Shown piece after piece: positions 9,001 to 12,000 of a stretch of DNA of 13,865 nucleotides (its first letter is position 1; the number at the start of each line of letters is the position of its first letter). Source of the DNA: a virus. Position numbers: made by a program. The DNA is taken from the UHGV virus genome UHGV-0099111; one strand, 5' to 3'.

Positions 9001-12000
9001 CCGAATGGGTAACCAAATGGGATGCTGCTGAAAACACGCAGGTAGAAGCCGTCAAAGGTGGTCGTTCCGGTGCAATGAAGCGCGCTGCCGTTCAGTGGGG
9101 AATCGGTCGGTATCTGTATAACCTTGAGGAAGGTTTCGCACAAACATCTCTCGATAAAAAGCAGGGGTGGCACAGGGCAAAACTGAAGGATGGAACAGGA
9201 TTTTACTGGCTCCCTCCATCGCTGCCGGGATGGGCAATCCCAGCATCAGATAAAAAACCATCACCAGAAAATACCAACCAGAAATCTCCATCGGTTGACT
9301 GCGAACAAATCCTGAAAGACTTCAGCGATTATGCATCAACAGAAACTGACAAGAAAAAACTCATCGAGCGTTATCAGCGTGACTGGCAATTAATGGCTGG
9401 CAACGAGGAGGCGCAGGCTAAATGCGTTCAGGTAATGAACATCAGAGTTAACGAACTAAAACAGGCGGCATAAATGGGAAGTAGAGGCGTAAATAAGGTG
9501 ATTATCCTTGGTCGGGTAGGACAAGACCCGGAAGTTCGATACTCACCATCAGGAACAGCGTTCGCTAACCTGACAATAGCAACGTCAGAACAATGGCGAG
9601 ATAAAAATACTGGCGAGCAAAAGGAATTGACTGAATGGCATCGTGTTGCTGTATCCGGGAAACTGGCTGAGGTCGTGGGGCAGTATGTGAAAAAAGGTGA
9701 TCAGATTTATTTCGAGGGAATGCTGAGAACCAGAAAGTGGAAAGACCAGTCAGGGCAAGACCGTTACACAACCGAGGTTCATGTCGGAATTAATGGCGTG
9801 ATGCAAATGCTTGGCGGCATTGGCGACAGCAAACAACAAGCAGCCAGCAGGCAATCACAGAAGCCACAGCAGCAATCATCACCAGCACAACACAACGAAC
9901 CTCCGATGGATTTTGACGACGATATACCCTTTGCACCAGTAACTCTCCCCTTCCCTCGTCACGCTATTCACGCAATTTAATCAGGAGAAAATCATGCCAG
10001 CGCCTCAGTATGGTGCAGATGACCCGCGCCGCTGTTCCGGCAATTCCGTATTGGAGGTGCTGGATAAATTCAGAAAAAACTACGACCAGATAATGTCTCT
10101 ACCGCAGGAAACGAAAGATGAAAAGGAATTTCGCCATTGTATATGGCTTGCAGAGAAAGAAGAACGCGAGCGAATTTACCAGACATCAATCCGACCATTC
10201 CGCAAAGCCACATATACCCACTTCCCTGAATATATCGACCCTCGCCTGCGTAATTACCGCTCACGCTATGGCGCTATCAGTAATGACTGAGGAATTTACC
10301 ATGAGAGGACTTGCATACAATCCCGGCATTCTTCCGGCAGAAATGATTATTCGCCAACGCGTAAAGCCAATGCCATCGAGAGAGGAATTGCTTAAGAGAA
10401 ATAGTTTCGGTTCTGTTAACGACAACAAATATCTGAATGCGATGTGGCGCAAAGGAGGCAACCAGTGAGCAAGATTGACTATCAGGTACTGCGTGAGGCA
10501 GCAGTAGCAATTGAAACAGTAGCAACGCCTCAAAAATTGCTGGCATTTCGTATGAAAGTAACACCTCAGGTTGTGCTGGCTCTACTGGATGAACGAGATG
10601 CATTAAATGAACGCCTAGCCGAACTGGAGGCTGATTTAGCAGGGCTGGCCGAAGACCACCAGAAAGCGACTGAGTCAATTAAGCAGGCTGATGCAGCTGT
10701 TAAGTTGGCACACGAGAAGTTTTCGGCGCTGGCGGCGGAGAATGCGATGTTGAAGCAACGGACACAGCAACTTATCGACATCATTAGTAATACTGACAAT
10801 GACTACTGCATGTGTGGTTCTGCTATGAAAGACCACGTGCACAGCGGATGTGGTTATCCTACTGGCATGTTCGATTATTACTACAACCAGTGGCTGGAGT
10901 CAGATAACAAAACCCCGGCCACCGATGCTTTTCTGGCTGAAGTGCGGGCGCAGGGTGTGGATTCAGCGATTAACACAGTCATTGCGATGATGAACCATCA
11001 GCATCCTGTCACATCGAAGGCAATCGACATAATGCGCGTCCATGCCTACCAAATTCGCAAAGGAGTGCAGTCATGAGAAAATCATACATCGTTATTCAGC
11101 AGTACTGGTGGTGCAACGAGAAAGGCCATGGAGTTGAATACACGACAGACGGCGTTGACTTCGATAAGCGCGATAAGGCCATCAAGCATGGATTCAAACA
11201 GCAAGGTAGCGATGATTTCAATATCGGCGTTATCGAAAATGAACGCCTAGTGTCATTCGACTGGATGAATAAGTCGATTGATGAAAGCGCAGAAAAACTT
11301 GCTGAAATTGCAGAAGCCATCGGTTACGAAGGAGCAGCCCAATGAGCAACATCAACAAACAGGCACTGCGTGAAGCGGCTGAGAAGGCCACTCCTGGCCG
11401 CGTCGGTGACCGTATCGACGGAAGCGGTAGCATCAAATACGAATGCCATGGTTATGATGGGTCTCTGGTCTTACGTACAGACCATAAAAACATGGAGTAC
11501 GGATTTATTGGTGATAACAGTAACGCCGATGAGCTGTTCTTCAGGTTGTGTGTGCCAGATGTAATTCTGGCACTGCTGGATGAACTGGAAGCCGCAGAGA
11601 AGCGGATTGCTGAGCTGGAAGCGAATAAGTGTAAGCCAGTGATGTTTATTGATGGCGATATATCGCCTGCTGACGCTGACAAGTTGGCTGCTGTAATTCG
11701 CGAGTTCAACGAAGAAACAGAAACCCCTGCGGCTCGAATGGCGCGGATTATTCGCGAGAACCCGCATCCAACTAACATGTGCGATATGCCAGCCGCTGGC
11801 ATCGGTAAGGGGGAGTGATGCTTCAACATCAAATGCAGCCAACATTTAACACCTGCATGGCTACCTGCGTTGCAATGGTTGCCGGTCAACCTGTCGATGA
11901 GGTAGTGGAACGCTGGCATCAGAAATTCCACGACAAAACAGACTGGCTCGACGACGCGCTGGATTATTACAAAATCCCGTATTTTTACGGAAGCCAGCGC

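Follow-up and report, generated by a model that had tools for sequence, protein, structure and literature searches.

The ssb gene of virus genome UHGV-0099111 encodes a single-stranded DNA (ssDNA)-binding protein (SSB) whose canonical acidic C-terminal tip lies inside the protein, ahead of a conserved tail of 15 residues. We analyzed this gene within the whole 13,865-nucleotide stretch of DNA (here called the window) and compared it with phage, prophage, and bacterial sequences. The tail is probably a real module, kept by selection at the C terminus of a large set of ssDNA-binding proteins from phages and prophages of Enterobacterales, and its recurrence in other genomes indicates that this copy of the gene has not been damaged. 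More than 12 genome-maintenance proteins find ssDNA by way of the C terminus of SSB (SSB-Ct), whose free terminal Phe is treated as a universal handle: a partner receives this Phe in a hydrophobic pocket and holds its α-carboxylate with a basic residue.

Fold, linker, and tip motif place the window protein in the bacterial SSB family; it departs from the family in the position of the tip, which is not terminal, and terminal position is what lets the tip act as a docking handle. Pfam PF00436 (SSB) covers residues 6 to 104 (E = 1.6e-36), and comparison with the E. coli SSB structures PDB 1eqq and 4mz9 gave E = 3e-57. Like the chromosomal SSB of E. coli, the window protein has a related OB fold, a disordered Q/P-rich linker, and the same 11-residue tip (residues 143 to 153, of which 146 to 153 are DFDDDIPF). 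Unlike E. coli SSB, it has a shorter linker, its tip is internal and followed by 15 conserved residues, and it is the product of an accessory prophage gene (in the order erf-ssb-abc2) rather than of an essential host gene. The open reading frame (ORF) listing and translation confirm what an earlier note on this DNA had observed, namely that 15 further codons separate DFDDDIPF from the stop (Table 1), so that F153 of the tip carries no free α-carboxylate. In an AF2 monomer model based on a 115-sequence alignment, the OB fold was confident (pLDDT 81 to 90 over most of the fold); pLDDT was <50 across residues 115 to 168, for which no fold was obtained, and 31 to 36 in the tail, which is predicted to be intrinsically disordered. 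The extension is absent from PDB chains, where a 28-mer matched only canonical SSB tips and SSB-tagged myosin constructs.

The tail recurs in independently sequenced phages. HK75 and mEp235 encode the same SSB protein except at residue 2 (Gly in the window SSB, Ala in all listed relatives); Salmonella phage epsilon34 has an identical tail within a locus that is 89.6% identical; and mEpX2, another independently sequenced phage, also has the tip-tail junction. When at least 80% coverage of the 87-nucleotide junction was required, this query matched 298 records from 297 of 5426 complete E. coli genomes, with ssb annotated as intact by PGAP. We also surveyed the best 120 90%-identity clusters from a search of 5.8 billion proteins. 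The extension was present in 112 of these clusters, with 29 distinct tail sequences, and was exactly 15 residues long in 111; seven others had canonical ends and one was frameshifted. The clusters come from Escherichia, Salmonella, Klebsiella, Citrobacter, Enterobacter, Kluyvera, Pluralibacter, and Phytobacter. Thus the alignment of homologues that the earlier note proposed shows the extension to be conserved. A few close relatives do end canonically at the tip (clusters P0008-P0013 and phages Huey, Sf6, and ES18).

A degenerate pattern scanned at the DNA level, DIPF[AS]PxxLx[FY]xxH with the position of the stop left unspecified, matched at least 120 viral contigs. All 120 of the matches listed encode ssDNA-binding proteins, and all 120 have a stop exactly 15 codons after IPF; they comprise 21 tail variants. 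The same pattern, applied to one genome per species, gave 26 matches, 19 of them true and all in Enterobacterales: these include Escherichia, Enterobacter, Kluyvera, Pantoea, Proteus, Providencia, Moellerella, and others, and extend to Morganellaceae, Erwiniaceae, and a Symbiopectobacterium plasmid. The remaining 6 or 7 are chance matches, a number near our rough estimate of the pattern's chance frequency. One matching record is labelled Chryseobacterium and is probably misassigned. Generally, the tail directly follows a canonical acidic tip, is 15 residues long in Enterobacterales, and conforms to [AS]-P-[VI]-[TG]-L-[PQM]-[FY]-P-[RS]-H-x-[IV]-x-x-[ILV]-COOH; in the window it ends in ..PRHAIHAI, and variant ends include ..YVI, ..NVI, and ..YAL.

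Ratios of nonsynonymous to synonymous change (dN/dS or pN/pS, all pairwise rather than tree based) place the tail under constraint. Among E. coli-like full-length extended SSBs from viral loci, dN/dS was 0.125 in the OB fold, 0.32 in the linker, 0.026 in the tip, and 0.175 in the tail. For 66 unique tip-plus-tail DNAs drawn from all protein scaffolds, tail pN/pS was 0.29, or 0.43 at the ten positions left free in the search pattern, and two to four synonymous codons were in use at each conserved tail residue. Eight genes, retrieved by protein similarity and chosen deliberately for their divergent tails, gave pN/pS values of 0.17 (OB fold), 0.63 (linker), 0.10 (tip), and 0.40 (tail), with a tail pS of 0.64, similar to the rest of the gene; across divergent members pS was 0.61 to 0.64. 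In the 115-sequence alignment, P155, L158, P159, F160, P161, R162, and H163 of the tail are conserved in ≥90% of sequences, as are only two positions of the adjoining linker; F147, P152, and F153 of the tip are invariant. The tip is the most conserved segment of the protein and the linker the most variable. Because its residues, length, and hydrophobic C terminus are kept despite synonymous divergence, the tail peptide appears from these comparisons to be maintained by selection on the protein.

The tip and tail are found together on several scaffolds: E. coli-like PF00436 SSBs; divergent 'MAINT...' PF00436 SSBs of 152 to 157 residues; proteins of ∼250 residues that belong to phrog_743 ('single strand DNA binding') and have no Pfam match, for example in Citrobacter phage Omnitron; and a further protein type at locus L106. 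Relatives of the phrog_743 proteins in Vibrio, Shewanella, and Stx phages lack this C terminus. The gene immediately upstream also varies, encoding Erf/Rad52_Rad22 in most loci, AAA_24 (Sak4-like) in many, and RecT, DUF2303, YqaJ, or HNH_3 in the rest; a BLASTP comparison of Erf and AAA_24 C termini for a common SSB-binding C-terminal domain returned zero alignments. Three tail-only DNA scans of viral contigs, in which the preceding codon was barred from encoding Ala or Ser (TCN), found the tail only on ssDNA-binding proteins and on one family of HNH endonucleases: they gave 0 matches, 54 matches (all HNH genes behind ssb), and 3 matches (two due to chance and one to an HNH-type ORF matched in another frame).

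A related tail occurs outside Enterobacterales. Accessory SSBs of Pseudoalteromonas (e.g., WP_045988842, P0210; P0366-P0441) share with the window protein a PF00436 core and a DFDDDIPF tip followed by [AS]PIGLQYP, and end in DFDDDIPF-[AS]PIGLQYP[AGN]LL..[MI]. The first half of their tail is identical to the Providencia variant APIGLQYPRHAIYVI. It differs from that of the window in having 14 residues and a purely hydrophobic second half (ALLSVM, ALLMCM, or NLLNCI), and in coming from another bacterial order. Several 50%-identity SSB clusters of metagenomic origin (P0299, P0273, P0225, P0321, and P0327) have other short tails after IPF that start with AP.

Phages Sf6, CurroJimenez, and Huey carry a different allele, in which the SSB stops right after NFDDSDIPF or NFDDEIPF and is followed by an HNH endonuclease gene (Sf6 gp26, phrog_2340; Sf6, locus L003 2090-2650; Huey, L004 1380-1932; CurroJimenez, L005). 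The endonuclease has ∼155 to 159 residues, and its last 14 are the tail residues, read through codons 155 to 168 of the window ssb. Base by base, Huey ssb is a near-perfect match to the window through ssb nucleotide 430; there follow a recoded tip (in HNH alleles, PMNFDDEIPF or NFDDSDIPF, then a stop), a ribosome-binding site (RBS), and the HNH ORF, and from the last base of codon 154 onward the two sequences agree again, over the tail codons, the stop, the RBS, and abc2. The last 14 codons of HNH in Sf6 and Huey, with the stop and the downstream RBS, are identical in DNA to 9936-9993 of the window. Unlike these phages, the window has no HNH gene: its ssb stop at 9980 leads to abc2 at 9994 without an intervening ORF. 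Of the HNH/zinc-ribbon nuclease (C..C...HHCDYSKP..WLC..CH..WH), the window has just the 14 shared C-terminal codons. In Sf6, Huey, and CurroJimenez, the SSB ends canonically at IPF and the tail belongs to the nuclease; as read from its sequence, the HNH allele is shown to yield a canonical, tail-less SSB.

In a set of 77 HNH homologues, the tail is confined to those encoded behind a lambdoid ssb; the others stop soon after ...WHKxNxPIY and have unrelated short ends. All 54 viral HNH ORFs that end in the tail have the E. coli/Salmonella tail subtype, and most have an SSB ending at the tip (...IPF, then stop) directly upstream, within 900 nucleotides; loci without one were generally cut short. 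The parsimonious interpretation is that a mobile HNH cassette entered an extended ssb exactly between tip and tail. The SSB would thereby have regained a canonical end, and the HNH gene would have taken over the tail codons and stop as its own. The cassette looks like a free-standing homing endonuclease that targets the tail-bearing ssb allele. Approximately 110 further E. coli genomes have the tail-only arrangement, i.e., the HNH allele. Full-text and keyword searches of the searchable literature found no description of the peptide or of extended prophage SSBs; the only trace is the annotation of the Sf6 record, which notes '14 contiguous amino acids identical to ... E. coli SSB protein' and refers to this same tail identity. 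The capped-tip SSB C terminus with its linked HNH insertion polymorphism is widespread and, as far as these searches show, an undescribed variant within the bacterial SSB family.

Several other observations concern this junction. The HNH gene was unannotated in two of the three E. coli genomes of this kind that we examined: these chromosomes (L154 1058-1559 and L155 1057-1553) have a gap of ∼500 bp between ssb and the next gene that ends in the tail codons and contains no RefSeq coding sequence (CDS), so the HNH gene was apparently missed or is degraded there. In ES18, a different endonuclease gene (gp47, L007 1484-2005) directly follows an SSB with a canonical NFDDEIPF end, and the tail is wholly absent. 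Such unrelated endonuclease genes (HNH_3/T7 gp7.7-like) flank ssb in other phages as well, among them the cluster 9 ORFs located upstream in six viral loci (e.g., L039). Insertions of endonuclease genes seem to concentrate at the 3′ end of ssb, making it a hotspot. E. coli prophages also contain in-frame chimeras (P0131, P0134, P0144, P0180, and P0204) that join SSB residues 1 to 104 to the C-terminal half of HNH (annotated as SSB), HNH to an exonuclease, or SSB to an exonuclease; they appear to be deletions between short repeats (e.g., ..IVG..) in decaying prophages.

As for function, the tail would turn the Phe carboxylate of the tip into a peptide bond and so block canonical docking of chi, ExoI, RecQ, and PriA. 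The sole experimental model of a capped tip that we found is E. coli SSB with one extra C-terminal Gly (EcoSSB+Gly), which had no measurable chi binding and was impaired in vivo (Naue et al. 2011, PMC3045619); it formed small colonies and complemented only under slow-growth conditions (PMC3045619). Like the window SSB, EcoSSB+Gly has its terminal Phe carboxylate turned into a peptide bond, but its single added residue is artificial and deleterious, whereas the window tail is natural, 15 residues long, conserved, and selected. By analogy with this mutant, the tail most likely prevents canonical docking of host SSB-interacting proteins, and the suggestion in the earlier note of a phage SSB variant that would not engage those proteins in the usual way fits the published result. 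The internal tip has not merely been inactivated, since no other part of the protein is conserved so strongly. Because of that conservation, and because the tail never occurs without a preceding tip save on the inserted HNH, the working unit is most likely the tip and tail acting jointly, as a 26-residue composite docking peptide with a new hydrophobic C terminus. Since the module is shared by unrelated scaffolds with different recombinase neighbors, it probably has as its partner some conserved host protein or general phage factor, and not the SSB fold or one annealing protein.

Taken together, tip and tail may form a new class of SSB C-terminal signal, a reading that we offer tentatively as a possibility rather than a probability. 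Temperate phages of gammaproteobacteria would use it to hide their SSB-coated recombination intermediates from the host SSB interactome (ExoI, RecJ, RecQ, RecO, PriA, and chi) and to dock instead on another conserved host hub, through a core of IPF-[AS]P[IV][GT]L[QPM][YF]P and the new hydrophobic C terminus; the HNH cassette, by splitting tip from tail, would toggle the SSB between 'host-interactome' and 'private' states. One candidate hub is the beta sliding clamp, which would tether phage annealing to the replication fork. The clamp-binding consensus is QL[SD]LF (PMC12867686). The tail sequence P-V-T-L-P-F has the Leu, the aromatic residue, and the predicted disorder of such a motif; the Gln and the adjacent L-F are absent, and the pentapeptide is unmatched. 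We take P-[VI]-[TG]-L-x-[FY] to be loosely like the hexapeptide QLxLx[LF] (QLSLPL in Hda, QLVLGL in Pol IV) and UmuD VTFPLF, as a lead only.

A precedent for a phage-specific C-terminal signal comes from phage HK620, whose SSB (HkaK, 'SSB-2') depends on its final six residues, NDYPPF, both to recruit Sak4 and to stimulate it (Hutinet et al. 2018, PMC5928155). Like the window SSB, this is a lambdoid recombination (Rec)-module SSB encoded beside its annealing protein. It differs in its scaffold and its uncapped ...PF-COOH end, whereas tails of the window type occur alike beside Erf, Sak4-like, RecT, and DUF2303 proteins. We considered HK620 SSB as a prior case of an extended tip and rejected it, because it ends at NDYPPF without an extension.

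Several points weigh against a selected docking signal. Loss of docking is extrapolated from one partner (chi) and from a mutant with a single added Gly, and one publication states that experimental studies of lambdoid Rec-module SSBs are lacking (PMC12315714). Huey, Sf6, and ES18 have no tail on their SSBs and are viable, so phages can do without it, at least in the laboratory. The viral search pattern itself fixes 8 of the 15 tail residues and so inflates apparent conservation in the viral set; the cluster survey, the 115-sequence alignment, and the set of genes with divergent tails are independent of it. Finally, among the closest E. coli and Salmonella relatives, tail pS is 0.28, compared with 0.6 in the rest of the gene. 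This difference suggests recent mosaic spread of a block comprising tip, tail, and downstream DNA, and the selection estimate is therefore weaker in that subset.

Alternative explanations for the tail fare less well. The earlier note had raised a sequencing error or a stop-codon loss, which would leave 15 meaningless codons before the next stop. Bacterial SSBs are expected to end at DDDIPF, as a few close relatives do, but the same junction in many independently sequenced phages and 297 E. coli genomes contradicts a sequencing error, and a recent stop-codon loss is contradicted by a family-wide extension of fixed length under purifying selection, with 111 of 120 related clusters at exactly 15 residues that are kept despite synonymous divergence; the homologues gave the opposite of a lesion confined to this copy, and we regard that explanation as virtually dismissed. 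Could the tail instead be the scar of a deletion, in which an ancestral ssb-HNH-abc2 arrangement lost HNH in frame and fused its last 14 codons to ssb? That the window ssb shares those codons, the stop, and the RBS base for base with HNH of Sf6 and Huey would fit, and in-frame ssb-HNH deletion fusions exist (P0131 and P0134). Nevertheless, it is very improbable: the restriction of the tail to HNH homologues behind a lambdoid ssb, the single subtype of HNH-borne tails set against the far greater diversity of SSB-borne tails (found also in phages of Proteus, Providencia, and Pantoea without HNH), and the related Pseudoalteromonas tail, likewise without HNH, all point the other way. Moreover, variant HNH tails (..HAIYAI and PITL..HAL) mirror the local ssb tail alleles, and the recoded tip of the HNH allele fits an inserted cassette, not an ancestor. 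A neutral passenger is somewhat less improbable, though still unlikely: here the tail would have arisen by a single stop-codon loss, and its DNA would be kept as a recombination joint, as a homing target, or for downstream expression. The low tail pS among close relatives, the near-identical tip-plus-tail DNA on two SSB scaffolds (which indicates recent recombination at or near the junction), the use of the junction as an insertion site for endonuclease genes, and the viability of phages without the tail are all consistent with this. However, divergent members keep the residues, length, and hydrophobic C terminus at a pS of 0.61 to 0.64, and read-through lengths would be expected to vary, but 111 of 112 extended clusters and all 120 listed viral matches have 15 residues. 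Nor do we see a DNA- or RNA-level role: we found no promoter-like or terminator-like sites in 9400-10400, an RNA fold of 9915-10010 no better than shuffled sequence (z = 0.67), and, in the ORF listing, no other ORF over 9936-9980. The abc2 RBS lies downstream of the ssb stop, outside the tail, and the genes and intergenic sequences 3′ of tail-bearing genes are wholly different between loci (abc2, an Rv2179c-like exonuclease gene, methylase genes, and others).

Two further alternatives accept selection on the peptide and assign it another task. The tail, which is hydrophobic, aromatic, and basic and has a small aliphatic C terminus, might be a degron that targets the phage SSB to a host AAA+ protease (ClpXP or Lon) and keeps a potentially toxic protein short-lived, with capping as a side effect. 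Its predicted disorder and exposure suit such a role, as does the fixed distance to a free hydrophobic C terminus in all members, including the Pseudoalteromonas ends ..LLSVM and ..LLMCM. C-terminal degrons recognized by ClpX, such as those of ssrA (..LAA) and MuA (..RRKKAI), are exposed and finish in small or aliphatic residues whose carboxylate is free, with basic residues ahead of them in the MuA type; we take the ..RHAIHAI end of the tail to resemble that of MuA, as a resemblance only, and the Lon determinant FPLF of UmuD to be a second likeness. On the other hand, degrons are usually variable, whereas in the tail P155, L158, F/Y160, P161, and H163 hardly vary and the N-terminal half is kept across orders, and a degron leaves unexplained both the constant presence of an intact tip ahead of the tail and the constraint on that tip, which is the strongest in the protein; we think it unlikely, if slightly less so than a neutral passenger. 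Alternatively, the tail might be a pro-peptide whose cleavage after F153 exposes a canonical DDDIPF-COOH at a certain time or place. This would account for an internal tip conserved like a functional canonical one and for the invariant junction F-[AS]-P, but a simple cleavable cap needs neither 15 conserved residues nor a fixed length, the loci have no protease gene as a regular neighbor, and we know of no cytoplasmic protease with specificity for cleavage after F153, which also counts against it. We give this alternative as little credence as the deletion scar.

A tip that is strongly constrained yet buried implies either that it does something important for which a free carboxylate is unnecessary or that phages have built a private second docking code on it, and either outcome would change how SSB tails are read. 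Annealing proteins for recombineering are now paired with hosts by means of this same feature, the free Phe of the SSB tip. Recombineering might gain orthogonal SSB/partner pairs, or a peptide ligand might be obtained for a hub of replication or repair in the host, and near-identical phages with the tail (HK75 and mEp235) and without it (Huey) provide natural matched controls. For annotation, extended ssb genes should be treated as intact rather than as pseudogenes, and HNH genes at the junction can be missed.

The window ssb lies in the early-left recombination module of a lambdoid/P22-like prophage, whose order in the window annotation is N-like antiterminator, erf, ssb, abc2, and then ea-type genes (Table 1). 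The erf TAA and the ssb ATG abut at 9471-9476 (TAAATG) in the same frame, an arrangement that suggests translational coupling.

Table 1. Coordinates of ssb, its parts, and neighboring features in the window
Feature	Position	Strand	Description or evidence
N-like antiterminator	5195-5557		Upstream part of the same recombination module
erf, Rad52/Rad22-type single-strand annealing protein	8766-9473	+	Pfam PF04098 (Rad52_Rad22), E = 5e-26; Erf-like annotation in HK75 and mEp235
ssb ORF	9474-9980	+	168 residues; ATG start; translation begins MGSRGVNKV
ssb residues 1-112, OB-fold ssDNA-binding core	9474-9809	+	PF00436; AF2; pN/pS 0.13-0.17
ssb residues 113-142, Q/P/S-rich disordered linker (IDL)	9810-9899	+	Low pLDDT; pN/pS 0.32-0.63
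ssb residues 143-153, canonical acidic SSB-Ct tip, internal here	9900-9932	+	pN/pS 0.03-0.10
Segment replaced in HNH-bearing alleles (Huey, Sf6, CurroJimenez); putative insertion/homing site	9905-9934	+	Base-by-base comparison
ssb residues 154-168, conserved 15-residue tail after the tip	9933-9977	+	Cluster survey; viral scan; pN/pS 0.18-0.40
TAA stop of ssb; also the HNH ORF stop in Sf6/Huey-type alleles	9978-9980	+	Sequence comparison
Shine-Dalgarno sequence (AGGAG) and abc2 (anti-RecBCD)	9984-10290	+	abc2 CDS 9994-10290; PF11043 (Anti-RecBCD_p2), E = 8.6e-60

Upstream of the recombination module, a 340-residue ORF with a TTG start (7196-8218, + strand) matches only PHROGs of unknown function (phrog_1376 and phrog_21365); most window ORFs from 10444 to 13506 are likewise of unknown function. 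Phages that are otherwise near-identical differ in whether a gene for an Rv2179c-like 3′-5′ exonuclease (PF16473, 182 residues) separates the tail-bearing ssb from abc2: it is found in mEp235 (L002 2190-2738), in epsilon34 (L006 1490-2038), and in 27 viral loci, and the window is without it. On a Klebsiella-type prophage contig, a DNA_pol3_theta (HOT-like) homologue (L221 5461-5718) lies a few genes downstream of a tail-bearing ssb, and is another phage gene whose product would touch the host replisome.

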